A stretch of DNA of 63,677 nt, counting the filler, from Deltaproteobacteria bacterium (lineage in GTDB: Bacteria; JAEEML01): assembly GCA_016283195.1 (NCBI GenBank). It is 5 parts of 5 records of this genome, joined end to end, with 100 filler letters (N's around TTAATTAATTAA, not from the genome) between each part and the next. Parts side by side here need not be neighbours in the genome. Positions count along the whole stretch, not along the records: positions 25,856 to 46,159 come from JAEEML010000152.1; 4 more parts are not named here. The stretch is one strand, 5' to 3'. The notes under the pieces were generated by a model that was given only the letters and a program-made list of their open reading frames with translations, was not told where the DNA came from and did no database searches. Position 1 is the first letter of the stretch; each line of letters opens with the position of its first letter. This document shows positions 22,875 through 58,634 of the stretch, one piece after another. A program made the translations under genes and the position numbers.

Positions 22875-24917
22875 TTATTTTCTGGTTTTTAAATTGGCGA
22901 GAAGAGCATCCAAATCGGCTAAATCTATAGAACTATATTTGGCAGTGGGACCAGGAGCCGGCGGCGGCGCAGGTTTGCTAAGCGGCGCTTCATCAATCTG
23001 GGGCAAAGGGGCAAACATCGGCTCATTTTGATATTGCAACTCAATAGTATCTTCCAAATCGGCTGAAACTTCACACTCCGGTAGCTCGCGAGTGGGAGCT
23101 ACCGGCACCATTATTGGAGTACTGTCATCTAGGCCATCGGTGACATCAACCGCTATCTCCGGCTCATTTTCCCCTTCACCGTCATCATCTATTGTTACAT
23201 CAAAGCCATCATCGGTAGATTCGGCGGCATCTTCGGCAAAATCGGCAGTAACATCTATTTCAGTAGCCGGAAGCGGCGCTTCGGGCTCAAAAGTCGTAGT
23301 CACGTCCGGCACAAGTTCTTCGGCAGCAGTAGGCACTTCCGGCTCAAATGTCGTAGTTACATCCGGCACAAGTTCTTCGGCAGCGGCAGTAGGCGCTTCG
23401 GGCTCAAATGTCGTAGTTACATCAGGCACAAGTTCTTCGGCAGCGGCAGTAGGCGCTTCGGGCTCAAATGTTGTAGTCACATCCGGCACAAGTTCTTCGG
23501 CAGCGGCAGTAGGCGCTTCCGGCTCAAATGTCGTAGTCACATCCGGCACAAGTTCTTCGGCAGCAGTAGGCACTTCCGGCTCAAATGTGGTGGTTACATC
23601 CGGAGAAACTTCATCAGCTAGACAGCCGCTCGCAGCTATTGCTTCCGGTGACAAAGCACTGGCTATATCGGGAGCGCTATAGGCCGGCTCCTCCTGAGCA
23701 GATGGCAAAGTTCCACCGGTAACTGCTGCCAAAAAGGCTTCGTTTTCTTCGCGGCTCACAGCCACAATCGGCTCTTCATCATCTTCCGGGCCATTTTCTG
23801 TGCTCTCCTCAGGCAGTGTTTCACCGGCTATATCTTCCATCACAGCGGCCGCAGCCGGGAAATTAGCACTATGCAACGGCGCCGCTGGCACCTCTTCCGC
23901 GGCGGGAGCTATTTCAATGCCCACTTCCGCAGCCTGAATAGTTTCGCTCTCTTCTTTAAACTCTTCCGCCGCTGTCTCAGCTACAGACTCTTCCGGCTGG
24001 ACAGCTTCTATAGCTTCAGCGGCGGCCAAAGCCTCATTTTCTTGAACTTCCGCTCGCGCTGCTTTAAGCGCCGCTTCGGCTTCTGCCGCCTGCTCCGGGC
24101 TGATAGTGAGTTCACCGAGGTTAGTGGTGACTTTATCCACAATCTCGCCAGTTACTTCGCGCGAGCCAGCAAAAAAAGCTTCCAAAAGAGCATTATCGCA
24201 AATGGTATTTATCACTCTGGGAATGCCGCCGCTGGCCAGATGCACTTTGGTAATAGCTTCAGGAGTAAATATGGGATAAGTAGCCCCGGCTTGCTCTAAT
24301 CTAAAATTGATATAAGCAGCGCTATTGGGCTCATCAAAAGGCGGCAGGCGATATTTTAAAGCCACACGCTGAGCCAGGGGCGGATCGAGCATCATGTGTT
24401 GCTCAAGTTCCGGGAGGCCAAAGAGGACAAAAGAAAGGAGCTTGTGGCCTGGCAGCTCAATATTTAAAAGGCCGCGAAATTCTTCCATAATTTCTTTGGT
24501 GGCCAACATTTGAGCTTCATCAATCAAAACCACAGCTTTGCGGCCGGCTTCGTGGATTTCCACCAGGCGCTGATAGAGGCGGTTAATAATAGTGAGCTTT
24601 TCTTCGCCGGGATCGGCCACGCCGAGTTGCATGGCAATGCGCCGGAGCAGCCAGGTGGCGCTGATGCCCTCGTGGACAATGATTAAAAGCGCGGCTTCAT
24701 AATTTTGCTCTAAGAGGTGATCCAAAAGGCGGCGGGCCAAAGTGGTTTTACCGTGGCCGATATTGCCGATGCAAACAGCCAGCCCCTTCATGCCGGAGGC
24801 TACATAAGTAAGCCTTTTTAGGGCTTCATCGTGCTGGGTGGAGTGGTAATAAAAGCGGCTCACCGGCGCATTGGCAAACGGTTCGCTCTGCAGGGAAAAA
24901 TGGTCTAAATAATCCAT
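22875..24917 (-). CDS. ExeA/GspA-family AAA ATPase with long acidic repeat tail
   Basis: YLDHFSL-x2-EPF, GNIGHGKTT, VLIDEAQ, LFGLPEL and SGGIPRVIN-x-ICDNAL; Glu/Ala/Pro-rich C-terminal half. Confidence 0.88.
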   Translation of the reverse strand: MDYLDHFSLQSEPFANAPVSRFYYHSTQHDEALKRLTYVASGMKGLAVCIGNIGHGKTTLARRLLDHLLEQNYEAALLIIVHEGISATWLLRRIAMQLGVADPGEEKLTIINRLYQRLVEIHEAGRKAVVLIDEAQMLATKEIMEEFRGLLNIELPGHKLLSFVLFGLPELEQHMMLDPPLAQRVALKYRLPPFDEPNSAAYINFRLEQAGATYPIFTPEAITKVHLASGGIPRVINTICDNALLEAFFAGSREVTGEIVDKVTTNLGELTISPEQAAEAEAALKAARAEVQENEALAAAEAIEAVQPEESVAETAAEEFKEESETIQAAEVGIEIAPAAEEVPAAPLHSANFPAAAAVMEDIAGETLPEESTENGPEDDEEPIVAVSREENEAFLAAVTGGTLPSAQEEPAYSAPDIASALSPEAIAASGCLADEVSPDVTTTFEPEVPTAAEELVPDVTTTFEPEAPTAAAEELVPDVTTTFEPEAPTAAAEELVPDVTTTFEPEAPTAAAEELVPDVTTTFEPEVPTAAEELVPDVTTTFEPEAPLPATEIDVTADFAEDAAESTDDGFDVTIDDDGEGENEPEIAVDVTDGLDDSTPIMVPVAPTRELPECEVSADLEDTIELQYQNEPMFAPLPQIDEAPLSKPAPPPAPGPTAKYSSIDLADLDALLANLKTRK
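23277..23613. repeat. Intragenic tandem repeat, about 6 x 57-60 bp (EELVPDVTTTFEPEAPTAA(A))
   Basis: GGCTCAAATGTCGTAGT(T/C)ACATCCGGCACAAGTTCTTCGGCAGC is repeated in tandem. Confidence 0.9.
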
Positions 24918-25755: not shown

Positions 25756-25855
25756 NNNNNNNNNNNNNNNNNNNNNNNNNNNNNNNNNNNNNNNNNNNNT
25801 TAATTAATTAANNNNNNNNNNNNNNNNNNNNNNNNNNNNNNNNNNNNNNNNNNNN
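25756..25855. other. Assembly gap / artificial contig linker
   Basis: N-run containing TTAATTAATTAA (stops in all six frames). Confidence 0.97.
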
Positions 25856-25858
25856 AAT

Positions 25859-26176
25859 ATGGCCGATTCTATCGTCCCCAATCAGCAGGACGGCGCCAAA
25901 TTTGCCGAATTAAAGAATAATATTTCCGCACAATTCGGCGTTAAACTGTCTGAAAATGCCGGCGCCGGCGAAGTGAGCCTTTTGGCCGCTGTTGCTGCTT
26001 CCGGCGGCAATATCAAGGGCATGGTTGATAGTGAAGGCAATATCAGCGCCGACAAACTCATGGCCGGTGTAGCTACTGTGCTTCGCGATGGCAGTAAAGC
26101 TGTCAATACCGCCTCGGATATGGCTAGTGGTATCGGAATGCAGATGAATGCTTTCCGCACCATGATAAACAGGTGA
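25859..26176 (+). CDS. Ala/Gly/Ser-rich hypothetical protein, probably 5'-truncated; co-oriented with the filament-like array
   Basis: ORF begins 3 nt after the gap; codon usage resembles highly expressed genes; amphipathic C-terminal helix. Confidence 0.65.
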   Translation: MADSIVPNQQDGAKFAELKNNISAQFGVKLSENAGAGEVSLLAAVAASGGNIKGMVDSEGNISADKLMAGVATVLRDGSKAVNTASDMASGIGMQMNAFRTMINR

Positions 26177-26245
26177 TTTTATTAGGTTTGCACCCATAAA
26201 GGGTGTTTAAAGTTTTAAACTTTTTAGAAGTTAGAGGAGTGTAAG

Positions 26246-27664
26246 ATGAGTAGTATTTCAGCAACAAACAGTAGTTTTAACATGAACGTCAGCATGAACA
26301 TGAGTGTTAGCAGCAGCACCAGTTCTTCCAAGCTTTCTTCGCTTGGCGACAAACTTGGCAGCATTCAAGACAATGTCAATGCTCTGGTTGAAAAGCTGAT
26401 GGGCCAAATGGAAGCTTTGGGCGATGCCCGCGAAGCTCTCTCTGATGCCAAAGCTGCGCTTAATGCTCACAAAGCCGGCAAACCAGTTGCTCCCAAAGCC
26501 GAAGCCTACACCAAAGACGGCAAACTGGATGAAGACGCCTTTAAAAAGGCTCAAAGTGACTATAACACTAAAAACAGTGCTTGGGAGCAAAAACTCGGCC
26601 AATTGGAAGCCAGAGTAAATACTTGCGAAGGCAAAGTAAAAACCTGCGAAGCCGATGTTGAAAAGACCAAACGCGACATTAAGAGCAAAGAAAATGAGCT
26701 CGAAAGCGTAAAAAGCGAGCTGCGCCGTGAAATGGGCGCCAGCAGCAGTTCTAATTCCAGTAAAGTTGAAGGCGGCAACAGCGCTATTGATGATGGTGCC
26801 GAAGCTATTTTCAACAAAGCTACCGAATTGCAAGCCGAAATTAAAGCCGCTACCTTAAAAGCCAGCAACATGGCGGCTCATGTGGGCGGTCAAGTGCGCT
26901 CGGCTGCTATGTTTAGCCAAAGTGCCGGTGCTGCCGTATCCAGCGGCATTGCTGCCGGTGATAATAACGCTATGGTTTCTCCGCAAGCGCAAAATATCTG
27001 GAGCAATTATTCTGATGGCTTTAAAGCCGCTCAAGCTTCTGGCAATACTTCGGCTATGCAGAGCCAATTTGCCGCTTTTGTGAGCGATATTCACGCTAAC
27101 GGCATGCCGGTTGATGTGAATGCTCTGGTGCAACAGGTTCTCCGCGAGAGCTACCTTGACACCACCGAGGACCTCAAATTCTATGCTGATAAAGTGAAAT
27201 ACTTCAATGAAGCTAAAAAAGCTGTGCGTGGTTATGTACAGGATCTTCGTGATATGAAGACTAATCTCTCAAAGCATATGCAGAGCAAAGAGTTTTGCTT
27301 GTCTGATCCGCCGAGCGACAGTGGTGAGTTGAGTAAATTTAAAGGAGAGGTTGAATAGTTCTTTAATAATGAAGTTAGCGGTAAATATGAGAGTGATTTT
27401 AATAATGATTTAGGTATTTGTGATAAAATGGGCTACTACCTTAACGAAGAAGGTAAAGAGACCAAAATATCTACTGCTGACGAACTTGACAACCTGATTT
27501 CCAAATTTGAAGAAAAACTTTCCACTATCGGTGATGATGCTCAGCTGGCCAATACCGATTTGCAAAACATTTTGCAAAAACAGCAGCAGACACTCCAGAT
27601 GATGTCCAACATCTCCAAGATGCTCAGCGACACCGCTCTGGCTGTCATCCGCAAAATTGGCTAA
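26246..27664 (+). pseudogene. Filament-like secreted protein paralog 1, interrupted by one in-frame TAG at 27356-27358 (nonsense mutation, error or readthrough)
   Basis: ORFs 26246-27358 and 27428-27664 share a frame, and the 23 intervening codons are open (FFNNEVSGKYESDFNNDLGICDK). Joined, they give both conserved blocks of paralogs 2 and 3. Confidence 0.8.
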
Positions 27665-27718
27665 TTGATTTGATTAACTAAGGTTTATTAAAACCTTTAA
27701 CTTTAAAAGGAGTTTATC

Positions 27719-29263
27719 ATGAGAATCGAAGGACAAAATCTGCAAGCTATCCAACAAGTGAATGTCGCCAAGGTGGAGAAAAAGGAGGTTAAACAGCTCA
27801 GCACTTCTATGATCGAGAAGAAGGCTACCGGTTTTGCCGCTGCCGACAAGCTCGATAAGAGCAGTGGTGCCGCTGTAAGTTCCACAGTTACCAACAATGT
27901 TAATATTGAATCCAATGTATCTGTTGAGCAGAATGTTTATATTACCAATGTTTTCGTTAATATTCCCGGTTCTCATTCCATGTTGCGTGATGTTTCCGGC
28001 GCTGTTACTGCCGGTAATGCTCAAGTTGCATGTGGTAAATTTGAATCTTTTGTGAAAGATATTCACGATAATGGCATGCCGGTTGATGTGAATGCTCTGG
28101 TGCAACAAGTTCTTCGCGAGAGCTACCTTGACACCACCGAGGACCTGAAATTCTATGCCGATAAGGTGAAATACTTCAACGAAGCCAAGAAGATGACTCG
28201 CCAATATGTGCAAGACTTGCGTGATTTCAAAACAGGTCTATCCACTTTTATGAAGGATAATGATTTTTGTTTATCTGATCCTCCGTCTGATAAAGCGCAA
28301 TTGGCAAAATTTAATGAGTTAGTAGAAACATATTGTGCTCAGCATATTGGTACTGCCAAGCATGCCACAGGTAATATTAATGTGCAATATGCCGCTGTTA
28401 CTAGCATGGTGAATGATATTGCAAAACACCAGGCTATTGGTGATGTTTTGAATCGTGGCGACAAAATGATCAAAGATACTTTTGGTTGTGGATTGCCGCA
28501 AGAAATTAAAGATCACATTAAGACAGCTTTAACTAGTGGTAATGATGAAGTTATTAATGCTGCTATGAAAGAAGTGGCTCAATATGTTTCTTATCTTGGT
28601 GATGCCGCTGTTAAAGATGGCAAATTTGGTAAAGCTTCTAATGGTATTGATGATGTTAGCCACAAAAAAGGCTGTTCTTCTCCATGCTATGAAGATTTCC
28701 AATACTATATGACGAGCGATTCTAATAAAAGTGCGCGTTCTAACTTGTCATGCACTGGTGGTGACCAAGCACAAATAATGAAGGCCTTTGGCTTTGATTC
28801 AAGCGTTAATTTAACTACCTATACTTCTTTTGATAAAGTAGTTGAGACGGCTATGAGCCCGCTTCACGATGCTTGGAAAAACGAGGTGCTTATTGGGCAG
28901 GAAAAAACAACTGATGCAATTTACCAAGATATTATGAAGAATGGTAATAGCTCTGAATGGGCCAAAGCATATCCTGGTATTGTCCAAAAAGTTGTTGAAA
29001 ATTCTACGCAGAACAACCAGATGGCTGATGATATTGGCTTGCCGTCCACTATTCCTCCAACAGATGTTACCACTGTTGAAGAGCTTGACAACGCTATCAC
29101 CAAGTTTGAGGAAAAACTCTCCACTATCGGTGACGACGCCCAGCTCGCTAACACCGATTTGCAAAACATTTTACAGAAACAGCAACAGACACTCCAGATG
29201 ATGTCCAACATCTCCAAGATGCTCAGCGACACCGCTCTGGCCGTCATCCGCAAAATCGGCTAA
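27719..29263 (+). CDS. Filament-like secreted protein paralog 2 (conserved helical blocks, variable middle)
   Basis: GMPVDVNALVQQVLRESYLDTTEDLKFYADKVKYFNEAKK block and C-terminal ...IGDDAQLANTDLQNILQKQQQTLQMMSNISKMLSDTALAVIRKIG; AAAGGAG RBS. Confidence 0.85.
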   Translation: MRIEGQNLQAIQQVNVAKVEKKEVKQLSTSMIEKKATGFAAADKLDKSSGAAVSSTVTNNVNIESNVSVEQNVYITNVFVNIPGSHSMLRDVSGAVTAGNAQVACGKFESFVKDIHDNGMPVDVNALVQQVLRESYLDTTEDLKFYADKVKYFNEAKKMTRQYVQDLRDFKTGLSTFMKDNDFCLSDPPSDKAQLAKFNELVETYCAQHIGTAKHATGNINVQYAAVTSMVNDIAKHQAIGDVLNRGDKMIKDTFGCGLPQEIKDHIKTALTSGNDEVINAAMKEVAQYVSYLGDAAVKDGKFGKASNGIDDVSHKKGCSSPCYEDFQYYMTSDSNKSARSNLSCTGGDQAQIMKAFGFDSSVNLTTYTSFDKVVETAMSPLHDAWKNEVLIGQEKTTDAIYQDIMKNGNSSEWAKAYPGIVQKVVENSTQNNQMADDIGLPSTIPPTDVTTVEELDNAITKFEEKLSTIGDDAQLANTDLQNILQKQQQTLQMMSNISKMLSDTALAVIRKIG

Positions 29264-29334
29264 TTAGTTGCTTACTGTGACTTCCTTTTTCCTGTCTTTC
29301 GCTTTTATAACCAACAACTTATTAGGAGATTAAC

Positions 29335-30975
29335 ATGGCTGTTAATAATATCTCTAATACTAATCATGCGGCGCAAATTGTGGCGGAGAGCTCTACTTTT
29401 AAAACTGAGACCAAACAGTTTTCTGCCGAAGTGCTTTCTAAAGGAACCAAGGCCACCGGCTTTGGCAAAAACGATGCTCTCGATATAGAAAAAGGCGAGG
29501 GTAAAGCTCAGAATTTTTCCGCCAGCGCCATGAAAACCATGCCCGGCGATGTTAACTATAATGAAATAATGGATGTGGCTCCCAAATATCAGGGAGATTT
29601 CAGAGCAGCCAGCGCGGCACTCAAAAGCCAAAATAACACCGTCGCTTGTGAGCACTTTTCCAAAGCGGTGAATGACATGGTGAAAGACGGCATTCCGGTG
29701 GATGTCAATGCCCTAGTGCAAGCTGTTCTCCGCGAGAGCTATATGGATACCACCGAGGATTTGCGCTTTTATGCCGATAAGGTGAAGTATTTCAACGAAG
29801 CCAAAAAGATGACCCGCGAATATGTGCAGGGGCTAAGGGATTTTAAAACCTCCTTTTCCAAAGCGGCTCAGGAAGCCGGTTTTGTGCTGAGCGATCCGCC
29901 GGCACCGAGTGATGAGCGCTATGTGGATTGGCTCTCCTTCCAAAAGGATTTTATAAATGAGCACCGCTCTGATACCTCTTTAGGCGCCGCTACCGGGATG
30001 AACTCAGTAGTAGCCAGTTATAAAGCTTCGCTGGCGGCAGCCGAATCGGCAGTTTGCAGCGGCCCGGGCATTGAGAGTGTAACGAAGAGCGGTAACTGGA
30101 CAACCATCACCGACAAAGACGGCTACCAGATAAAGACCAATGTGCCGGTGGGTGACCAGGTGCAAATATATGGTCCAAACGGTGACCCCATTGTGGAAAT
30201 CTGGGGCGATCCCCATGTTGATGAAGGTTTTAACGGCTCGCGCAACGATTGGCATTTTGGCGAAGATTCCACCTTTATTTTGCCTAATGGTACTAAAGTT
30301 TGCATCAATACCGAAGAGGCTACAGCCGGTAGCGGCATTTATTACTCCAAAGGTGTGGATGTGCTCTCCGGCAGCGGGCGCGGCACTGTGGGCCATGACC
30401 CGGTAACCGGTGCCGACCGCGCGGCCAGTATGCAAAGCGATAGAGCTACATGGGATCAATATCATGCCGATACTAAGGGCACTAGCGGTGGCGTTTTTGC
30501 TCTGGCGACCGGCACCAAAGAGTGGGCCAAATTGGGTGATGATGGCAAGTTTTACGATATTGCCAATTTTAGCTTTGATGAATACAAAAAAGACCACAAA
30601 GTTAAGACTAATAGCAATGCTGTCACAGTTTCGGCCGATGCCATAAAGGGCGCCACCTCCGGCGCTAATTTGGCCAAAGTGGCAGAGAATGTGGAATTTG
30701 CCAATAATTACCCGGATACTCCGGCCGGGCAAATGGCTGCGGATATAGGTATTCCCACTATGATTCCGCCCGGTGACTGCACATCGGTGGAAGAGCTGGA
30801 TAATCTTATTACTAAGTTTGAAGAAAAGCTTTCTACTATCGGCGACGATGCCCAGCTCGCTAATACTGATTTGCAAAATGTCTTACAAAAGCAGCAGCAG
30901 ACAATCCAGATGATGTCCAATATTTCCAAGATGCTTAATGACACCGCTCTGGCGGTCATTCGCAAAATAGGTTAA
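29335..30975 (+). CDS. Filament-like secreted protein paralog 3 with internal DUF1521/MIIA-like domain
   Basis: Same two conserved blocks; the insert contains IWGDPHVDE...DWHFGEDSTFILPNGTKVCINTE. Confidence 0.85.
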   Translation: MAVNNISNTNHAAQIVAESSTFKTETKQFSAEVLSKGTKATGFGKNDALDIEKGEGKAQNFSASAMKTMPGDVNYNEIMDVAPKYQGDFRAASAALKSQNNTVACEHFSKAVNDMVKDGIPVDVNALVQAVLRESYMDTTEDLRFYADKVKYFNEAKKMTREYVQGLRDFKTSFSKAAQEAGFVLSDPPAPSDERYVDWLSFQKDFINEHRSDTSLGAATGMNSVVASYKASLAAAESAVCSGPGIESVTKSGNWTTITDKDGYQIKTNVPVGDQVQIYGPNGDPIVEIWGDPHVDEGFNGSRNDWHFGEDSTFILPNGTKVCINTEEATAGSGIYYSKGVDVLSGSGRGTVGHDPVTGADRAASMQSDRATWDQYHADTKGTSGGVFALATGTKEWAKLGDDGKFYDIANFSFDEYKKDHKVKTNSNAVTVSADAIKGATSGANLAKVAENVEFANNYPDTPAGQMAADIGIPTMIPPGDCTSVEELDNLITKFEEKLSTIGDDAQLANTDLQNVLQKQQQTIQMMSNISKMLNDTALAVIRKIG

Positions 30976-30988
30976 TAGGGGGAGCACT

Positions 30989-31267
30989 ATGGCTACAGTA
31001 ATCAATTTTGAAAAACATACGCTCACTTTTACCGGTAATGGCCAGCCCAGTGTGATTATTCCTTTTGAGAAGGTGGAGACGCTGGCCGTGGAGCCCATGG
31101 CTGATTTTGGCCAAAAAATGGGTAAAGTTTATTATCAGCGCGAAGACGGAGCAACAGGCTGGGTAGCTATTGCGTCGCCGGAGAAGGCTTTGCCGGATAA
31201 AATGGCTTCACTGGCTAAAATAATAAGCAAAGTTACCGGCAAAGAATACCCCATAGGCGGCATTTAA
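30989..31267 (+). CDS. Small hypothetical protein, last gene of the paralog operon
   Basis: GGGGAG RBS 13 bp after paralog 3; beta-rich with a C-terminal helix. Confidence 0.7.
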   Translation: MATVINFEKHTLTFTGNGQPSVIIPFEKVETLAVEPMADFGQKMGKVYYQREDGATGWVAIASPEKALPDKMASLAKIISKVTGKEYPIGGI

Positions 31268-31545
31268 AAATAATAGCCTAAGCCTGCTTTTAAATTCATT
31301 TCTCTTTGATAAGCCTATTTCACTTTTCTTGGACCTCTCCTCCTAACTTATTGGATTTTTAAAAAATCGCCCCTCTCCCAAGCGGCGAGGGGCTCAGCTT
31401 ATTTGAAGTTAAAATTTATTTTATCTTTAAAAACAATAGGTTAATTTTGGAAGAAGAGTATGTGGCGAAAGCAGGAAGAGACGGAACTACTCTTATCTTA
31501 AAGAAATTTTATTTAAATGATTTGTGGCGTGTGGGGGAAATTGGT

Positions 31546-34008
31546 TTATTCTTTTATGCAGCGGACGGGGATGGCGGTAATGGCTAAGTCAGTATTGGCA
31601 ATCGCAAAATCAGGCGTAATACTATTATTATAAAAGCGTGAAGCGGTGCCGTTTATATTCCAAAAAAGAGCTCCGCCGCCATATTGGCTCAAATCAACAT
31701 TAGAGCAGTTATCTGGGTAAACGTTAGTGGAAGCGCATTTGGAATAACCGCCGGGCAGGGCGCTAAAACCAAGGCTGTCATATCCTTTATTGGTATAAGG
31801 AGAGCCCCAAGAAGAGCTATAGGCAATAAGCTTTTTAAAAGCAGTGCAATTGTTTGAATTATTACAACTAAGGGGCAGAGCATACGTTTTGGCATAATAA
31901 CTAAGACTATTGATATCGGCATACGTTGGTAATTTCCAGCCGCTGGGACAAGCTTTTTTGGCATTCTCATAATTATAGCGGTAACCGAATAGATTATTTT
32001 GTTGGTAACCTTTGATGTCATATTTAAGGTCATTTTTATTATTATCTTTTCGGCTGCGGATATTTTCACGCATCCAAAGCACGCCGTTTATTGTTACCAA
32101 TTGGTATGTCTCGTTATTGATAGTATCGGTAAAGCGGCATTTTGTTTCATTAGCCGGATCTTGATATTTGGCGATTGCGGGGCTATCTTCGCCGAGCCTA
32201 GTTTTCTTCATATCGCAGACAACACATTCGGAACCTACTTGCCAGCTGCCGGCAGCACAAGCAGTGCAATTACTTCCGGTATAGCCGGCTTTGCAAGTGC
32301 GGCATTGCGTAGCCGGATCCCAGTTGCCATTGCAGGTGCAACCGGTGCCGCTAACGCCGCTAGAGCAAGAACCACGGCCGCTACAGATTGAACCGTTAGT
32401 GGCTATGCAAGTGTTATTGCAATTGGCGCCGTAATAAGGGCTGGCGCAAGTGCTGCAACTAGCGCCGCTCCAATGGTTATTACAGCCGGAGCAGCCTTGG
32501 GTATTGGTAGTGGTATTTTCGCAAGAGCCGCCGTTTGTGCAAGAACAGGTTTTTGAGCAATTGGCCCCGTAATGTGTGGTGTCGCAGGCGGTACAATTAG
32601 AGCCGCCCCAGGGAGATTTACAAGAGCAGCCTATGGTATTGGTGGTTGTATGAGCGCAGGTGCCGCCGTTGGCGCAGGTAGGACAGGTTTTGGCGCAATT
32701 AGCGCCATAATGGGTGCTGTCGCACTCTGTGCAATCGGCGCCGCCATAGGGCGCGTTGCAGCTGCAACCGGTGCCGCTAAAGCCGCTATTGCAAAAGCCA
32801 TGGCCGCCGCAAACTGCGCCATTTATTACCGGGCACTCATTTTCGCAATTTGCGCCGTAATGGGTGCTGTCACAGGTAGAGCAATCAGGACCGGCCCAGC
32901 CGGGTGCACAGGCACAGCCGGTACTATTATTGGGAGTATTTAGACAGGTCCCGTGGCCACTGCAGACTTGCCCGCCGCTCACCGGGCACTCATTTTGGCA
33001 ATTTTCGCCATAGCGGCCGCTAACACACTGGGCACAATCAGTACCGGTAAAATTGATTTTACAAGTATCACAATAAGTACCTGCCCAGTTGCCGTTACAT
33101 TGGCAATGGCCGCTGATGCCGGAGATGCAGGAGGCGCCGTGTTGGCAGAGTGAGCAGGGTTTGCAATCAAGATCAAAATAGCCGTTTTTACAATCTTCGC
33201 AATTATCACCGTCAAAGCCATCTTCACAAATGCATTTTCCGAATTGATTACAAGTGCCGTGTTTGCCGCTGCAAATACCCTGGCTGGTGCCGAGGCCGGG
33301 GCACTCATTTTGGCAATTTTCGCCGTAATAGCCATAAATGCACTCATCGCAGGCGGGATAATTGGTTTTGTTGCCGGCACAGCCGGAACAATCAGAGCTC
33401 TCCGGCAAGCCGGGGTTGCAAGTGCATTTACCGCTGCCGTGTACGCCGTTATCGCAAGAGCCGTTGCCGGAGCAGGGAATGCCATCATGAGTGCCGGGGC
33501 ATTCATTTTGGCAGTTTTCGCCGTAGTGATCTTTAGTACAATCGGTGCAGCCCTTAGAGCTATCAAAGCCCTCGGCGCATTGGTCGCAGCTTTTGCCGCT
33601 GAAGCCGGTAAAGCAAACGCAGGAGCCATCGCCGGATACACCGTCAAGGCAATCGCCGTGGTTGCTGCAAACGGCACCATCGGCATCAACATTGGGGCAG
33701 GGCTCGCAATCAGCGCCAAAATGGTCGCGCGGGCAACCGTTATCGGTATCGGTGTTATCATGCCCGTTTGGATCGTCGCTCTTAGCATCGTTATCGCCCG
33801 GTTTTTGGCCGTTATTGTTCTTGGAATCGGCATCATTGCTTTGAGCTAAGCTGCCGGCTTCCTGGCAGGTGCCGTCGCGGCAAATTAAACTGCCTTGGCA
33901 TTCGGCACTTTTTTGGCAACCATCGCCGACTAACCCCTCTTGGGCACAAGAAGCAGTTAGCATAGCTAATGAAGCACTAAGTAAAAAATATTTGTTGTTT
34001 ACCATCAT
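31546..34008 (-). CDS. Surface lipoprotein: EGF/laminin-EGF-like repeat stalk + C-terminal FISUMP (Fib_succ_major) domain
   Basis: Lipobox LTASC; about ten C-x-G-x-G-x-C...C-x-C...G-x2-C-x2-C...YG-x-NC units; YQLVTINGVLWMRENI, ACPSGWKLPT, GFSALPGG and PVRCIKE. Confidence 0.88.
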   Translation of the reverse strand: MMVNNKYFLLSASLAMLTASCAQEGLVGDGCQKSAECQGSLICRDGTCQEAGSLAQSNDADSKNNNGQKPGDNDAKSDDPNGHDNTDTDNGCPRDHFGADCEPCPNVDADGAVCSNHGDCLDGVSGDGSCVCFTGFSGKSCDQCAEGFDSSKGCTDCTKDHYGENCQNECPGTHDGIPCSGNGSCDNGVHGSGKCTCNPGLPESSDCSGCAGNKTNYPACDECIYGYYGENCQNECPGLGTSQGICSGKHGTCNQFGKCICEDGFDGDNCEDCKNGYFDLDCKPCSLCQHGASCISGISGHCQCNGNWAGTYCDTCKINFTGTDCAQCVSGRYGENCQNECPVSGGQVCSGHGTCLNTPNNSTGCACAPGWAGPDCSTCDSTHYGANCENECPVINGAVCGGHGFCNSGFSGTGCSCNAPYGGADCTECDSTHYGANCAKTCPTCANGGTCAHTTTNTIGCSCKSPWGGSNCTACDTTHYGANCSKTCSCTNGGSCENTTTNTQGCSGCNNHWSGASCSTCASPYYGANCNNTCIATNGSICSGRGSCSSGVSGTGCTCNGNWDPATQCRTCKAGYTGSNCTACAAGSWQVGSECVVCDMKKTRLGEDSPAIAKYQDPANETKCRFTDTINNETYQLVTINGVLWMRENIRSRKDNNKNDLKYDIKGYQQNNLFGYRYNYENAKKACPSGWKLPTYADINSLSYYAKTYALPLSCNNSNNCTAFKKLIAYSSSWGSPYTNKGYDSLGFSALPGGYSKCASTNVYPDNCSNVDLSQYGGGALFWNINGTASRFYNNSITPDFAIANTDLAITAIPVRCIKE

Positions 34009-36721: not shown

Positions 36722-37267
36722 CTAGCCGATGTTTTCATCTGCTATTAGGCGTACAGATAAAAAACATTGTGGATTAAAAGCTAATCTAATTGTAGCTTGG
36801 TTATTTCCCATAGCAAGAACATTAATAGGAACAGTGTTACCAGATGGTGCAGCAGTGGTTGAAGTCCACCAATAACCATGAAAATAAAAGCCAGAATATG
36901 AGCCATTATACTCTCCAGCTGGCAACGCATTGAAACCAAAAGCATTTTTCCCTGAGTGTAATATTGACCAATTGTGTGATGCTAATGAGTCAAATTCAGA
37001 GCATGAAGGATTGTGTCTTTTTACATAGTTTAGCAAGTCTGTAAAATCATCTTTTGTTGGCAATCTCCAGCCAGGAATTTTGCTGGCTATTGTACGGGCA
37101 GTATCCCATGTATAAAGATAGCCATATTGAGCCACATTGTTCTGGCCGCCATTTGGCGGAAAAATTCCCCCGGCCAAATTAGTAGGATAGTCTCGTAAGT
37201 TTTCTGCCATCCAGATTTGATTGCCTATTTTAATTGTTTGGTAGCTATTACCTGATGTATCTTGCAT
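36722..37267 (-). CDS. Stand-alone FISUMP domain protein without signal peptide (orphan module)
   Basis: YQTIKIGNQIWMAENL, YGYLYTW, PGWRLPT, FGFNALPAG and SVRLI. Confidence 0.85.
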   Translation of the reverse strand: MQDTSGNSYQTIKIGNQIWMAENLRDYPTNLAGGIFPPNGGQNNVAQYGYLYTWDTARTIASKIPGWRLPTKDDFTDLLNYVKRHNPSCSEFDSLASHNWSILHSGKNAFGFNALPAGEYNGSYSGFYFHGYWWTSTTAAPSGNTVPINVLAMGNNQATIRLAFNPQCFLSVRLIADENIG

Positions 37268-37326: not shown

Positions 37327-40077
37327 TTAATTGTTATCTTTTACACAGCGAACCGAGTACTTACTACTTTTTAAGCCTCTACCAACTCCTGCTGCACTTG
37401 CTTCTGATTGTCCTTGAATATACAAGAACATGGCCTCATTCTCATCATTAGGTTCTTTGGTGGCCGACCAAAAAGAGGCAGTATCTCCAAACTCATAGCA
37501 TGATGAACCAGTATAGCAGAAACCTGCAGGGAGTGCTTCAAAGCCATAGGTATCCTTCCCGTTGTCCCAAGTATTAGCCGTTAAAATCTTATTACTATGG
37601 ATTTTGCCTACATAAGTTAGTAAGTCATCAAACTCATTTTTAGTTGGCAAATGCCAACCGCTTGGACACACTTTTCGAGCATCAAACCATGAGTATAAGC
37701 AGCCGTAGTCCTGCCAAAAATTATTTATTTGGCTATTTCTAATGCACACTACAGAGACACCATTGGCTGTGCTAGTGTTCATATTTTCTGCCATCCATTC
37801 ATTGCCATTAATGAGCACTGTTTTGTAATTATACCCGTAGGCAGTAAGAGTGCCTCTGTCACAATCTTCGCCGCTCCAACCATCATCGCAACTGTCTGCA
37901 AGACAATGACCTGTTTCTGGGTCAGCAGTACCTCTTTGACATTTAGGCTCATCACAGTATTCGCCGGTAAAACCATTTTCATTACAGATGCATTTAAATT
38001 GATCGATATCAAAGTGTTGATTTGATCTGCATTCTGGATTTTTTATGCAACGTACTGAATTAAATAATTTAGAATGCCCCAGATTATGGAACCCAATATT
38101 TTCATCTAAATACATTTTAGTAGGATGACTAGTAGAACCATCTACAGTATTAGACCAGAAGTATGTGGTTGTTCCAAAATCGATGTAGTCTGTCTTTAGT
38201 GTCTCGCCAATATAATAGGTACCATATACTCCTGCTGGAAGAGCCCCAAAGCCATAAGTATCTTGGCCGTCATTCCAGCTACTGGCTCTTAATACTGAGC
38301 TATTAGAACAAGCAACATAATTTAATAAGTCACTAAAATCCTCATATTCAGGCAAATGCCAGCCAATTGGGCATACTTTTTGAGCATCTTCCCATTTGTA
38401 TAAGCAACCATAATGTTCAATAAACTCTGGATCCCCTTGGGGGGCTGGTTTGGTATTAGCATAACAGGTGATACCATCTTCTTGATAGGCTATGTTTTCG
38501 GCCATCCATTCTTGTTCACCGATAATGACAGTTTTATAAGTGTTGCCTGCTTGGTCGGTCATAGAGCCATAGATGTTGTTACAATCTAACCCATAGTAAT
38601 TATCTGTACACTGGTTACAATTTGGGCCAGTAAAATGGTCGTTACATTCACCTATACACTGCCCAGTACCACTGGGACCAAGATGCGGATTGCCATGTAC
38701 ACAGGTAATAGTATTCTTATTACAAATCTCTCCATAGTAATTATCATTGCATGTCAAGCACTTTCCATCTCCTTTGATTCCAAGATAAGGAGTCCCATTT
38801 ACGCAGGAGGGAATATTATTGCAATTTTTTCCCCAATAATTACCAGTGCATGAGTCGCAGTTTTCACCGCTCCAGCCAGTACCGGTTAGGCAAGAAGAAC
38901 ATTTACCGTCGCCGGTAATACCAAGTTTAGGAGTTCCGTTTTGGCAAGTTGGCTCTTGGTTGCAATTTGGGCCCCAGTAGTTACCGGTGCATTGGTCACA
39001 GTTTTCGCCACTCCAACCAGTACCTGCCAGGCAAGAAGAACATTTACCATCACCGGTAATACCAAGTTTAGGTGTTCCATTGACACAACTAATTGTATTT
39101 TTATCGCAGTCAGCGCTATAATAGTTGCCAGTGCATTGGTCACAGTTTTCGCCACTCCAACCAGTACCTGCCAGGCAAGAAGAACATTTACCATCACCGG
39201 TAATACCAAGTTTAGGTGTTCCATTGACACAGCTAATTGTATTTTTATCGCAATCGAGACCATAATAACCCGCTTCACAAGAAGTACAGTGACCATTGCC
39301 GTTAATGCCTTCACTGGGCTCACCATGCTTACAGGTTATAGCGTTGCAGTTACTCCCAAAATGCCCGGGTAGGCATTCATCGCAATTAACGCCGGTAAAG
39401 CCCTCTGGGCAGGAGTAGCAAGAGCCATCATTTTGGATGCCATCATTACATTGTAAGCTGCCACATTCACATTTTTTGCACTCCGGCCCATAGTAACCAG
39501 CGGCGCATTGGTCGCAGTTAGTTCCGGTAAAACCGCTTTGGCAACTGGAGCAAGAACCATTGCCGTTTAAGCCGGAGTTGCAGGAGCCGTTTTTGCAATT
39601 GCAAGGCTCACAGGTTGCGCCAAAGTGGCGGCTATCGCACTCGTTGCACTCCTGGCCTGTCCAGCCCTCTTTGCAAGCAGTACAGCTGGTTCCGGCATGA
39701 TTGCCGGTACATTCGCAAGACCCTAAGCCATCGCATTGCTGAAATTCGCCGGAACAGGAACCAATTTTTTCTCCTTTAGGGAAGGGCTCACAAATGCGGG
39801 TCTGGCTGGAACAATATTGGCAAGAATCGGCGCAATCGGCATTAGAACTACATTTATTAGTGCAGATGCCTTTGGCAGAGCAGGCTTGATTTTCTTGGCA
39901 GTCGCTATCGCCGGAGCAGGTCTGTACCTTGGGCTGTTCCGGCGGCTCTTCGGCTGGTGTTTGGGCTTTGCTGTCTGAGCCGGGCTCCGAATTAGGGGCG
40001 GCAGTGCCACAGGCAGAAAAGCTTAAAGCAATTAAAGATAGTGAGCAGATAAGTTGGTAATTATGCTTGGTCAACAT
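37327..40077 (-). CDS. Surface lipoprotein: EGF-like repeat stalk + two FISUMP domains
   Basis: Lipobox FSAC; EGF-like repeats; two YKTV-x-I-x3-EWMAEN...YGCLY-x-W...CP-x-GWHLP...YGF-x-ALPAG...SVRC domains. Confidence 0.88.
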   Translation of the reverse strand: MLTKHNYQLICSLSLIALSFSACGTAAPNSEPGSDSKAQTPAEEPPEQPKVQTCSGDSDCQENQACSAKGICTNKCSSNADCADSCQYCSSQTRICEPFPKGEKIGSCSGEFQQCDGLGSCECTGNHAGTSCTACKEGWTGQECNECDSRHFGATCEPCNCKNGSCNSGLNGNGSCSSCQSGFTGTNCDQCAAGYYGPECKKCECGSLQCNDGIQNDGSCYSCPEGFTGVNCDECLPGHFGSNCNAITCKHGEPSEGINGNGHCTSCEAGYYGLDCDKNTISCVNGTPKLGITGDGKCSSCLAGTGWSGENCDQCTGNYYSADCDKNTISCVNGTPKLGITGDGKCSSCLAGTGWSGENCDQCTGNYWGPNCNQEPTCQNGTPKLGITGDGKCSSCLTGTGWSGENCDSCTGNYWGKNCNNIPSCVNGTPYLGIKGDGKCLTCNDNYYGEICNKNTITCVHGNPHLGPSGTGQCIGECNDHFTGPNCNQCTDNYYGLDCNNIYGSMTDQAGNTYKTVIIGEQEWMAENIAYQEDGITCYANTKPAPQGDPEFIEHYGCLYKWEDAQKVCPIGWHLPEYEDFSDLLNYVACSNSSVLRASSWNDGQDTYGFGALPAGVYGTYYIGETLKTDYIDFGTTTYFWSNTVDGSTSHPTKMYLDENIGFHNLGHSKLFNSVRCIKNPECRSNQHFDIDQFKCICNENGFTGEYCDEPKCQRGTADPETGHCLADSCDDGWSGEDCDRGTLTAYGYNYKTVLINGNEWMAENMNTSTANGVSVVCIRNSQINNFWQDYGCLYSWFDARKVCPSGWHLPTKNEFDDLLTYVGKIHSNKILTANTWDNGKDTYGFEALPAGFCYTGSSCYEFGDTASFWSATKEPNDENEAMFLYIQGQSEASAAGVGRGLKSSKYSVRCVKDNN
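38830..39255. repeat. Intragenic tandem repeat, about 3 x 141-144 bp near-identical EGF units
   Basis: NGTPKLGITGDGKCSSCL(A/T)GTGWSGENCD occurs three times, nearly identical at DNA level. Confidence 0.85.
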
Positions 40078-40742: not shown

Positions 40743-41672
40743 ATGGCTAATGCAGAAGAGTATTCACCAGAAGACATTACCCACCTTACGCCTGAGCAGC
40801 GTGCATCTATCGAAGTCACTAATGACTACGTCTTCCGCTGCCTCTTTGGCGACACCAAAAATGAGAAGCTTTTACTCTCGCTGATAAATGCCGTTTTGCG
40901 TGACAGCAAGCAGCCGGAAGTTAGCTCGGTAACCATCACAAGCCCTTTTAATTATAAGCAAACTTTTGATGATAAAGAATCTATTACCGATGTAAAAGCC
41001 GTGGCCAAAAGCGGCGAAATTTTCGATATTGAGATGCAGGTTTTAAAAGAGAGCGATTACATGAAGCGCATTCTTTACTATGCTGCCCACAATATCAGCT
41101 CACAGCTCCCGGAAGGTGGGCACTACTCCGCCATTCATCCGGTTATTTGCATAAATGTATTGGCTTTTGAGCTTTTTAAAGAAGACAAGCGCCCGCACCA
41201 CTTTGCCGAGATTATGGAGGTAGAAAGTCAAAAAGTTTTGACCGATGACCTGGGTTTTCATTTTCTGGAGCTCACAAAGCTTAGAAATTGTGCTAATATT
41301 GACGGCGAGCTACGCGAGTGGCTCAATTTCTTCCGCCATGGACACGAGGAGGGTTACATGGTTAGCGGAGCTTATCAGGCGGTGGCCGATGCCAATAGCT
41401 GGTTTGAGAATTTCAAAGCCAATGACTATATGACCAGTAAAGCCTTCCAGAGAGCCAAGCACCTGCGCGATGAAGAGGCTATTCGCAAAGCCGGCTGGGA
41501 AGATGGACATGAAGATGGCTGGGAAGAAGGTTTGAAAGAAGGTGAAGCCAACGGCATTAAAATAGCTAAGCTAGAGGCAGCTCAAAAAATGAAGGACGAT
41601 GGCTTACCGGTGGATGTGATAAGCAAATATACCGGCCTTTCTGCAAGCGACATTGCGGCACTCAGGTGCTAG
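40743..41672 (+). CDS. Rpn family recombination-promoting nuclease / putative transposase (PD-(D/E)XK)
   Basis: NDYVFRCLFG, DKESITDVKA, FDIEMQ, RILYY, FHFLEL-x-K, and C-terminal EG-x2-EG repeats plus ISKYTGLS HTH. Confidence 0.9.
   Translation: MANAEEYSPEDITHLTPEQRASIEVTNDYVFRCLFGDTKNEKLLLSLINAVLRDSKQPEVSSVTITSPFNYKQTFDDKESITDVKAVAKSGEIFDIEMQVLKESDYMKRILYYAAHNISSQLPEGGHYSAIHPVICINVLAFELFKEDKRPHHFAEIMEVESQKVLTDDLGFHFLELTKLRNCANIDGELREWLNFFRHGHEEGYMVSGAYQAVADANSWFENFKANDYMTSKAFQRAKHLRDEEAIRKAGWEDGHEDGWEEGLKEGEANGIKIAKLEAAQKMKDDGLPVDVISKYTGLSASDIAALRC
41358..41672 (+). CDS. Predicted intragenic small protein (RpnS-like, 104 aa) from an internal start
   Basis: GAGGAGG (41346-41352) lies 5 nt before an in-frame ATG (Met206), at the start of the C-terminal domain. 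Confidence 0.55.
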   Translation: MVSGAYQAVADANSWFENFKANDYMTSKAFQRAKHLRDEEAIRKAGWEDGHEDGWEEGLKEGEANGIKIAKLEAAQKMKDDGLPVDVISKYTGLSASDIAALRC

Positions 41673-46159: not shown

Positions 46160-46259
46160 NNNNNNNNNNNNNNNNNNNNNNNNNNNNNNNNNNNNNNNNN
46201 NNNTTAATTAATTAANNNNNNNNNNNNNNNNNNNNNNNNNNNNNNNNNNNNNNNNNNNN
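46160..46259. other. Assembly gap / artificial contig linker
   Basis: N-run with TTAATTAATTAA. Confidence 0.97.
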
Positions 46260-52109: not shown

Positions 52110-52209
52110 NNNNNNNNNNNNNNNNNNNNNNNNNNNNNNNNNNNNNNNNNNNNTTAATTAATTAANNNNNNNNNNNNNNNNNNNNNNNNNNNNNNNNNNN
52201 NNNNNNNNN
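52110..52209. other. Assembly gap / artificial contig linker
   Basis: N-run with TTAATTAATTAA. Confidence 0.97.
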
Positions 52210-58534: not shown

Positions 58535-58634
58535 NNNNNNNNNNNNNNNNNNNNNNNNNNNNNNNNNNNNNNNNNNNNTTAATTAATTAANNNNNNNNNN
58601 NNNNNNNNNNNNNNNNNNNNNNNNNNNNNNNNNN
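58535..58634. other. Assembly gap / artificial contig linker
   Basis: N-run with TTAATTAATTAA. Confidence 0.97.

Follow-up and report, generated by a model that had tools for sequence, protein, structure and literature searches.

What is encoded by a gene repeated three times in a row, if the ends of its product hardly vary and the middle differs in every copy? This question is raised by a stretch of 63,677 nucleotides (filler included; hereafter the window) from the genome of a Deltaproteobacteria bacterium (GenBank assembly GCA_016283195.1, JAEEML01), which contains, at positions 25859-31267, a tandem array of three such paralogs. A first-pass annotation, made from the sequence alone, had proposed that they are subunits of an extracellular filament exported by a type III system and carrying interchangeable domains. 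In the present study we arrived at a related reading, to which we assign a probability of roughly 45%: the window proteins would be type III-exported, self-associating hairpins of the needle-tip, filament or translocator class, which display variable inserts. The blocks, the family, its domains, the gene neighbourhoods and the models are observations; the export route, assembly outside the cell and the form taken (cap, short tip or long filament) are inferred. Dependence of the whole family on type III export is ruled out, since over half of the carrier genomes lack the apparatus and many members possess Sec-type signals.

The paralogs lie on the + strand at 26246-27664 (paralog 1, 472 codons), 27719-29263 (paralog 2, 514 amino acids) and 29335-30975 (paralog 3, 546 amino acids). 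Each of them contains two repeated segments: block 1 (27101-27256, 28073-28228 and 29689-29844, respectively) and block 2 (27482-27661, 29081-29260 and 30793-30972). The description given in the first-pass annotation was accurate in all of these respects: the three genes are co-oriented, the reported starting points of block 1 (27101, 28073 and 29689) are exact, block 2 constitutes the last 60 residues of each protein, and the inserts of approximately 87, 296 and 328 residues agree with the coordinates. The strong ribosome-binding sites were also found, as GGAG-type sequences before 26246, 27719 and 29335, with a further one before 30989. None of the three N-termini is signal-peptide-like according to a hydrophobicity rule (mean Kyte-Doolittle value ≥2.0 over 11 residues near the N-terminus; not SignalP), in agreement with the claimed absence of a Sec signal.

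Pairwise comparison of the paralogs revealed 83-92% identity of block 1 at the protein level and 72-83% at the DNA level, and still higher values for block 2 (93-97% and 83-89%, respectively). Most of the differences in the DNA of the blocks are silent, which points to purifying selection and not to recent gene conversion. The consensus sequences derived from family alignments are DVNALVQ.VLRE.Y....EDL..YA.KV.YFN..KK..R for block 1 and EEKL...GDDAQLAN.DLQN.LQKQQQT.QMMSNISKM..DTA.AVIRKIG for block 2. Both blocks are near-invariant in 17 diverse homologues, a similarity well above what chance would give, whereas the remainder of the proteins varies.

Paralog 1 starts with a Ser-rich segment, continues with a long coiled coil and block 1, and ends, after a short linker, in block 2. 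It had been listed as an ordinary member of the array; this stands as far as the presence of both blocks is concerned, but the gene is not a single open frame, because the linker bears an in-frame TAG (27356-27358). Open reading frame (ORF) calls on the + strand split it into 26246-27358 (370 amino acids) and 27428-27664 (78 amino acids), the latter not preceded by a GGAG-type ribosome-binding site. The same triplet terminates 5 other ORFs among the 46 long ORFs of the window, and is thus an ordinary stop in this sequence. When the stop is read through (as X), the 472 residues align end to end with those of the intact homologue P0025 (476 amino acids; 46% identity, E 3e-124). At position 27356, a contig of metagenomic run X2, from a strain 95-99% identical to that of the window, has A in place of T, which gives AAG (single contig, depth 3.1); in the best matching run, X1 (≥99% identity), no contig spans 26966-28075 and hence none covers the TAG site. 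Judged by these alignments, paralog 1 is a full family member with a putative strain-specific nonsense change or assembly error.

The two other paralogs carry large inserts. The one in paralog 2 (residues ~192-439) is all-helical and 35-41% identical to the corresponding part of many homologues. That in paralog 3 is a DUF1521/MIIA domain (PF07481; E 4.3e-10, 40.3 bits versus a cut-off of 23.6), located at residues 256-343 (30100-30363), with the motif GDPH at residues 291-294 (30205-30216). According to the account given in PMC6506597, the MIIA domain of VIC_001052 and the NopE proteins cleaves itself after the Asp of GDPH upon calcium binding, is known from the type III-secreted NopE1 and NopE2 and from a type III-cluster protein of Vibrio coralliilyticus, and is triggered by calcium at levels found outside the bacterial cytoplasm. 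NopE1/NopE2 and VIC_001052 thus have in common with paralog 3 a DUF1521 domain scoring above the Pfam cut-off, together with its cleavage motif. The likeness is confined to this one domain, which in paralog 3 is placed between two helices of another family.

That family proved to be large. A word-indexed search with paralog 2 produced 7545 candidates of 282-900 amino acids, 308 of which matched it at E≤1e-3; all of these are unnamed or "hypothetical", and where the bins are named they belong to Myxococcota or Deltaproteobacteria. A profile built from 15 minimal members matched the representatives of 2216 clusters (50% identity) at E≤1e-3, and those of 1570 and 616 clusters at E≤1e-10 and E≤1e-30, respectively. 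Blocks 1 and 2 have no model in Pfam or NCBIfam, and most of the paralog 2 matches carry no precomputed Pfam annotation. Searches of PDB sequences with profile A1 gave no match at E≤10 and with profile A2 four chance matches with E of at least 0.12. Full-text searches by topic words, and not by the motif, listed no paper on the family, which may have been described under another name.

The shortest (minimal) members, of 155-200 amino acids, consist of the two blocks and a linker of ~50 residues; their sequence begins directly at block 1, with no signal. The AlphaFold2 model of one of them (181 amino acids) has a predicted local distance difference test score (pLDDT) of 85.6, a predicted template modelling score of 0.66, and helices at residues 13-69 and 119-180. 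In the model of paralog 2 (pLDDT 74.2) helices occupy residues 124-180 and 453-513, the insert is predicted to be all-helical and reaches pLDDT >90, and residues 1-74 (pLDDT <50) are disordered. The idea of conserved helices around a variable domain is borne out by these models and by the alignments, in which two helices of ~60 residues flank the insert. From the hairpin shape of the Foldseek neighbours we infer that the two helices may pair within the chain.

A model containing four copies of the minimal member obtained a self-association score of 0.73 (0.00, 0.73 and 0.75 in the individual runs), compared with 0.02 for the best of three controls; the mark set in this test is attained for 20 of 30 solved structures of one-chain pairs and for 1 of 23 of single chains. 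Contact agreement in the four-copy runs was at least 0% and the pLDDT of the partner at least 66. In the predicted interface, residues 39-75 (helix 1) pack against residues 118-159 (helix 2) of a different copy. This model supports binding of the minimal member to itself but does not show it. Homo-oligomer modelling had been recommended as a check of helical filament packing; it predicts self-association and does not show an extended filament.

A link to type III needle proteins was found through intermediates. Six C-termini encoded in genomes G001-G005 match the T3SS_needle_F model at E-values from 1.2e-4 to 0.28, all below the cut-off. In profile-profile comparisons (hhalign), block 2 (301 sequences) aligned with these six needle-like C-termini over 61 columns (probability 96.5%, E 7.6e-10), against 0.5% for the reversed control and at most 1.0% in 20 column shuffles. 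The six in turn aligned with the needle proteins EscF and EprI (89.7%, E 1.8e-6). The resemblance of the C-terminus to type III filament or needle proteins, suggested previously, is upheld in this transitive form, but none of EspA, SctF and flagellin was matched significantly in direct comparisons. As the direct match of block 2 to needle proteins is non-significant, the link is a transitive one and does not amount to proof. A peptide containing only block 2 scored 10.9 bits (E 0.55) against PF09392, which has a cut-off of 29.4. Comparisons of block 1, the whole minimal alignment, c6 (see below), c5 and the coiled-coil neighbour with the needle, bridge and block profiles gave probabilities ≤1.6%, and those of blocks 1 and 2 with a flagellin of a related genome 0.1%. 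In a language-model look-up, a cluster with Pfam EspA in 12% of its members ranked 18th (score 0.93), which we treat as a lead only.

The proteins with needle-like C-termini merit separate mention. In genomes G001 (L089:388-1698) and G003 (L088:1486-2790) such a C-terminus (PF09392, E 1.2e-4; EspA, E 0.042) ends a protein of ~435 amino acids with hydrophobic stretches rich in Gly, Ala and Met. Its gene is flanked by genes for chaperone-like tetratricopeptide repeat (TPR) proteins, and the product may be a translocator-like component of a type III system of the Myxococcota type. The same end helix is present, in related genomes, in proteins of 190, 309, 533 and 520 amino acids, encoded at L092:172-744(-), L090:1492-2421(-), L091:7-1608 and L093:1495-3057(-), respectively, the first of which has the size of an EspA-type subunit.

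Further evidence comes from gene neighbourhoods. A pattern scan of one genome per species, in which 131 of 385 candidate stretches were confirmed, provided 80 loci for these analyses. At 13 of the 80 loci, in 12 genomes, genes of SycD/LcrH chaperones (TIGR02552, E≤1e-15) form a conserved block with a family gene of ~300 codons. The gene order in the Myxococcota-type loci is: PilX/PilY1/GspH-like pilins, a 161-amino acid TPR protein, c6, a coiled-coil protein, the ~300-amino acid family member, a protein of ~800 amino acids and, later, a second TPR protein. When compared with TIGR02552 (cut-off 104.8 bits), one of the TPR proteins scores 91.4 bits (E 3.7e-26), below the cut-off, and the other 110 bits (E 6.8e-32), above it. 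At several related loci (e.g. L027:1414-7198 and L040:1430-7198) we noted PilX-, PilY1- and GspH/FimT-like minor pilin genes directly upstream of the chaperone/family block.

The array itself is preceded by an ORF (25859-26176, + strand, 105 codons) with no Pfam or NCBIfam match, which is similar to the last ~90 residues of c6 (~240 amino acids) from 10 loci (phmmer, E 1.7e-9 to 3.6e-4); in related loci the c6 gene precedes the family genes. By this similarity, the ORF is taken to be the 3' tail of a ~240-amino acid c6 gene cut by the start of the contig. Because the truncated ORF corresponds to the c6 of the chaperone block, the array probably sits in the same arrangement, the upstream part of which was lost at the contig end. 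An earlier suggestion that the ORF encodes a further component of the system can be kept insofar as it is a homologue of a gene from related blocks, but what is present here is a fragment cut at a contig junction. The array contig starts inside this neighbouring gene, and no SycD-like ORF was found anywhere in the window.

As a marker of the export apparatus we used FHIPEP (FlhA/SctV), which was detected over the cut-off in 24 of 57 family-bearing genomes: all 5 of the closest, 19 of a further 47 and none of the 5 distant genomes. The 33 genomes without it are all metagenome-assembled, and some of the absences may reflect incompleteness. Genome G005 contains an SctV-type copy (852 bits with TIGR01399, cut-off 692; 696 bits with FlhA, below the cut-off of 772), the gene of which stands among housekeeping genes. 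The search of homologue neighbourhoods and genomes for export genes, proposed together with the filament idea, gave a mixed answer: SycD/LcrH genes at 13 loci and an SctV-type gene in G005 on the one hand, and the 33 genomes without FHIPEP on the other.

The N-termini of the family fall into several types. Of 222 members sampled and classified by the above hydrophobicity rule, most (168) have an N-terminal extension that lacks a signal-like segment, and 32 have a signal-peptide-like N-terminus; the remainder comprise 13 minimal members, 5 with a partial N-terminus, 3 in which only block 2 is present and 1 that lacks it. Clear signal peptides can be seen in a family alignment and in Bacteroidota sequences. 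The co-occurrence of these types with the apparatus differs: an FHIPEP-positive genome holds 13 of 15 members with a long extension and no signal, compared with 6 of 19 signal-peptide-like, 1 of 8 minimal and 4 of 14 block-2-only members.

The family was also compared with known systems. Type III tip proteins are built of a pair of long, antiparallel helices that enclose a variable domain, and the AlphaFold2 models of the family contain two long helices, presumably antiparallel, with an inserted domain. SctA proteins (EspA/SseB PF03433, Bsp22, LcrV/IpaD) and the family are both hydrophilic, and at 13 of the 80 related loci family genes have TPR class II chaperone genes beside them, as SctA genes do. 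EspA gives no sequence or profile match, however, and IpaD only a Foldseek E of 0.6 with a template modelling (TM) score of 0.31; unlike SctA proteins, the family also occurs in organisms with no type III apparatus, where it carries Sec-type signals. The SctF needles (PF09392; EscF and EprI of E. coli O157:H7 Sakai) resemble it in having a C-terminal amphipathic helix with the same end register and common polar positions. They differ in size and layout, since needles have ~75-85 amino acids and a tight interhelix turn, whereas family members have 155-920 amino acids, inserts of 50-330 residues and long N-terminal extensions; needles are also encoded in the type III locus, while the contig of the array contains no apparatus gene.

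Flagellins (PF00669/PF00700), likewise composed of conserved helices and a variable exposed middle, provided the top Foldseek shape with their filament core (E 0.13, non-significant), but there is no profile similarity, flagellin domains are absent and block 1 is not N-terminal. PspA/Vipp1 (ESCRT-III) proteins are oligomerizing long helical hairpins similar to our models (PspA: TM 0.48, root-mean-square deviation 4.9 A over 165 columns), although nothing indicates kinship (Foldseek E 0.64; PspA_IM30 on P0025 at E 0.012, below the cut-off). In polymorphic toxins the N-terminus is conserved, the C-terminus variable and an immunity gene present; in the family the C-terminus is the most conserved part and no such gene was found.

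On the reading that we favour, a hairpin of two ~60-residue helices would self-associate, with a lineage- and copy-specific domain inserted at its far end. The disordered N-terminal 75-110 residues, rich in Ser, Thr and Asn, would serve for export through a type III apparatus without Sec, and the exported proteins would resemble substrates of the needle-tip, filament or translocator class in their behaviour. By the transitive profile evidence, the C-terminal helix would be a distant relative of the C-terminal polymerization helix of needle proteins. Outside the cell, as in the modelled interface, helix 1 of one subunit would pack on helix 2 of its neighbour, leaving the inserts on display: an all-helical domain in paralog 2, and in paralog 3 a calcium-triggered MIIA domain that may nick the chain between the two helices. 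Paralog 1, which has a long coiled coil at the N-terminus and hardly any insert, is interrupted by a stop codon in this assembly.

A number of observations weigh against this interpretation. The array contig contains no export or chaperone gene (the lack of visible export apparatus genes had been pointed out before, and none is present on this contig), and its upstream flank is missing. As many as 33 of the 57 family-bearing genomes have no FHIPEP over the cut-off, including a complete 2.4-Mb Dehalococcoidia chromosome, Actinomycetes, Bacteroidales and archaea. A YscC-type secretin over the cut-off was detected in none of the 5 close relatives and flagellins in all 5, and the exporter, if any, could be flagellar. 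The association of 13 of 15 signal-less members with FHIPEP comes from one related clade and not from independent events, and signal-peptide-like N-termini characterize 32 of the 222 sampled and 19 of the 61 loci-encoded members. In sequence comparisons, the window proteins matched none of the EspA, needle and flagellin Pfam models at E≤1; direct hhalign comparison of block 2 with EscF+EprI gave a probability of 2.6% (E 0.018, 34 columns, end register) and with EspA 0.1%, and block 1 matched nothing. The Foldseek comparison proposed earlier gave no hit at E≤1e-3 with either model in the PDB or with the minimal model in BFVD; the closest resemblance was to long hairpins of a generic kind (flagellin core, Vipp1/PspA, YscO and IpaD; E 0.13 to 0.6). 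Finally, one of the three complex runs scored 0.00.

The main rival, which we regard as possible though doubtful, is that the blocks form a general self-assembling coiled-coil scaffold unrelated to type III export, the destination of which depends on the lineage (through Sec to the periplasm or surface, the cytoplasm, or fused carriers), and that the window copies are structural or adhesive proteins taking another export route or none. The distribution of the family speaks for it, as the 33 genomes without FHIPEP include monoderms and archaea. Bacterial carriers include Myxococcota- and "Bdellovibrionales"-labelled bins, Acidobacteriota, Armatimonadota, Gemmatimonadota, Burkholderiales, Nitrospirota, Actinomycetes (a 1.2-Mb contig), Bacteroidales/Rikenellaceae and the complete Dehalococcoidia chromosome; archaeal ones are Thorarchaeota, Thermoplasmatota, Methanomicrobia and Woesearchaeota. 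Block 2 keeps 60-80% identity across these phyla. In addition to the 32 signal-peptide-like sampled members, Thorarchaeota proteins have an N-terminal zinc ribbon instead of a signal, and those of Woesearchaeota are large and Cys-rich with a signal-like N-terminus. Such a scaffold is also compatible with the self-association passing the model test, with a CsgG-like channel gene adjoining signal-peptide-type members at two Gemmatimonadota loci, and with the absence of a conserved partner gene in distant lineages. What it leaves unexplained are the SycD/LcrH genes at 13 loci, the MIIA insert typical of type III substrates, the occurrence of signal-less, insert-bearing copies in FHIPEP-positive genomes (13 of 15) and the profile link to needle-like C-termini.

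Modular effectors or toxins, in which the hairpin would be a delivery or membrane-acting module common to several secretion machines and the inserts releasing or payload domains, are an improbable explanation. It draws on the domain content of the family: of the 120 matches listed, 15 contain PF07481, 8 contain PF26745 (accompanied by EF-hands or not), 2 contain calpain (PF00648) and 1 contains a Tox-PAAR-like domain; MIIA and calpain are inserts of the releasing-peptidase type. The Tox-PAAR-like domain is a trafficking-type head joined to both blocks in P0072 (E 4e-9, 37 bits versus a cut-off of 31), and a TIGR02241-like head, below the cut-off, is fused to block 2 in Chloroflexota. The presence of ~13 family copies in one genome of 4.0 Mb would also suit such a role. 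A conserved C-terminus with a variable interior is nevertheless the reverse of polymorphic toxins, and there is no conserved small immunity-like downstream gene, as the 92-amino acid ORF that follows paralog 3 has no homologue in the 80 loci. Moreover, the neighbouring proteins checked contain no hydrophobic membrane-spanning stretch, the PADLOC library yielded coiled-coil noise for paralog 1 and nothing else, and no plasmid, phage or viral contig matched: tblastn with the minimal member found nothing in plasmids and phages, and none of 203 pattern matches in IMG/VR was confirmed.

Least probable of all, and in our view very unlikely, is that these are cytoplasmic coiled-coil proteins (e.g. 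cytoskeletal or regulatory) that are not exported, since the signal-less minimal members beginning at block 1, the archaeal zinc-ribbon members and the array contig devoid of export genes, all of which would fit, are countered by the many signal-peptide-like N-termini, by chaperone synteny that points to export and by the calcium trigger of MIIA, which according to PMC6506597 requires levels found outside the bacterial cytoplasm.

Some additional features of individual family members and their loci were recorded. The Chloroflexota protein with the phage-tail-region-like head (L071:2-2014; 670 amino acids, 5'-truncated) matches TIGR02241 at E 3e-6. In an Acidobacteriota protein (L068:7561-8163), block 1 enters an unrelated Arg/Ser-rich stretch and then resumes, which looks like a frameshift or assembly error. 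The 4.0-Mb genome with ~13 copies (counted as matches extending to the C-terminal end of the profile) is G001, in which there are also 15 flagellin-domain matches. In the Gemmatimonadota loci L046 (8699-9730) and L013 (7260-8219) a gene for a CsgG-like lipoprotein channel (PF03783, E 2.8e-37) lies just upstream of signal-peptide-type members, with peptidyl-arginine deiminase and DUF4412 genes nearby; CsgG was rejected as a general partner, as it adjoins members only at these two loci. At L099:6631-8474 (= L034) a flagellin gene is followed, 146 bases further on and in the same orientation, by a family gene of ~290 codons; occurring at 1 of 80 loci, flagellin was not accepted as a conserved neighbour. 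The commonest "partner" cluster (24 loci) turned out to be an antisense frame of block 2 and was discarded, and neighbour clustering over the 80 loci revealed no partner gene common across phyla.

The window is composed of five contigs joined by spacers of N44-TTAATTAATTAA-N44, located at 25756-25855, 46160-46259, 52110-52209 and 58535-58634, and, being a chain of separate contigs, does not permit gene neighbourhoods to be read across these points. The array opens a contig of 20,304 bases (25856-46159, JAEEML010000152.1), the length also recorded for the contig of P0001 and P0009, which begins directly after the first spacer; the ATPase, rpsB and tsf genes before 25756 belong to another contig and are unlinked to the array. 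The 92-amino acid ORF directly downstream of paralog 3 (30989-31267, + strand, with its own ribosome-binding site) has no significant match in Pfam or NCBIfam and, when compared with 7281 ORFs from the window and the 80 loci, matched only itself. Promoter and terminator scans of 25856-31600 gave 14 and 9 predictions, respectively, versus 9.8±3.9 and 6.9±2.8 in shuffled sequences, i.e. not above chance. On the remainder of the array contig we found three genes on the - strand (31546-34008, 36722-37267 and 37327-40077) with the Fibrobacter succinogenes major paralogous domain, two of them encoding large, Cys-rich proteins with EGF-like repeats, as well as a gene of a PD-(D/E)XK nuclease family transposase (40743-41672, + strand; PF12784, E 1.4e-48). 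Another contig encodes, at 22875-24917 (- strand), a protein similar to AAA_22 and XrtA-PEP-CTERM-associated ATPases (TIGR03015, E 1.7e-53, below the cut-off), with a long acidic tail containing a tandem unit of ~20 residues (EELVPDVTTTFEPE.PTAA).

As regards the host, ribosomal protein S2 is 61-64% identical to those of three Myxococcota-labelled carriers, 55% to that of an Acidobacteriota and 44% to that of a Rikenellaceae genome. These values suggest the Myxococcota lineage assumed earlier as probable, with the reservation that S2 is encoded on a neighbouring contig and not on that of the array. An RlmD-like gene of the array contig is taxonomically uninformative, as its nearest named relatives are ≤38% identical and come from mixed phyla. 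Contigs ≥99% identical to the window were found in run X1 and contigs 95-99% identical in run X2, both labelled as gut metagenome and belonging to two studies; thus the window strain or its close relatives occur in animal gut metagenomes. Two RNA libraries made from the sample of X2 (X4 and X5) provided contigs over parts of 28517-29220, a hint at, but no demonstration of, transcription of paralog 2.

The significance of the family lies in its relation to a gap in known type III systems. Abby and Rocha (PMC3459982) describe non-flagellar type III systems of the Myxococcales type that have no secretin, SctF, tip protein or translocon; in the same paper they state that homologues of the tip and translocon might have been overlooked and call for functional analysis. 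The family described here, the sister proteins ending in a needle-like helix and the SycD/LcrH chaperones encoded next to family members in genomes labelled Myxococcota are testable candidates for those absent parts. A bolder proposal, to which we give little credence, is that the hairpin family constitutes the absent needle, tip and translocator set of the secretin-less, SctF-less "Myxo-type" systems and, more broadly, an ancient self-polymerizing module ancestral to needle and filament proteins, still exported by Sec or forming a cytoplasmic polymer elsewhere, with inserted enzymes and self-cleaving domains making it a display scaffold. If the homology with needle proteins is true, the occurrence of the module, with Sec-type signals or with none, in organisms that have no type III export, archaea among them, would bear on the origin of needle and filament subunits. 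Two near-invariant helices that tolerate inserts of 50-330 residues, including a calcium-triggered self-cleaving domain, represent a natural display scaffold.

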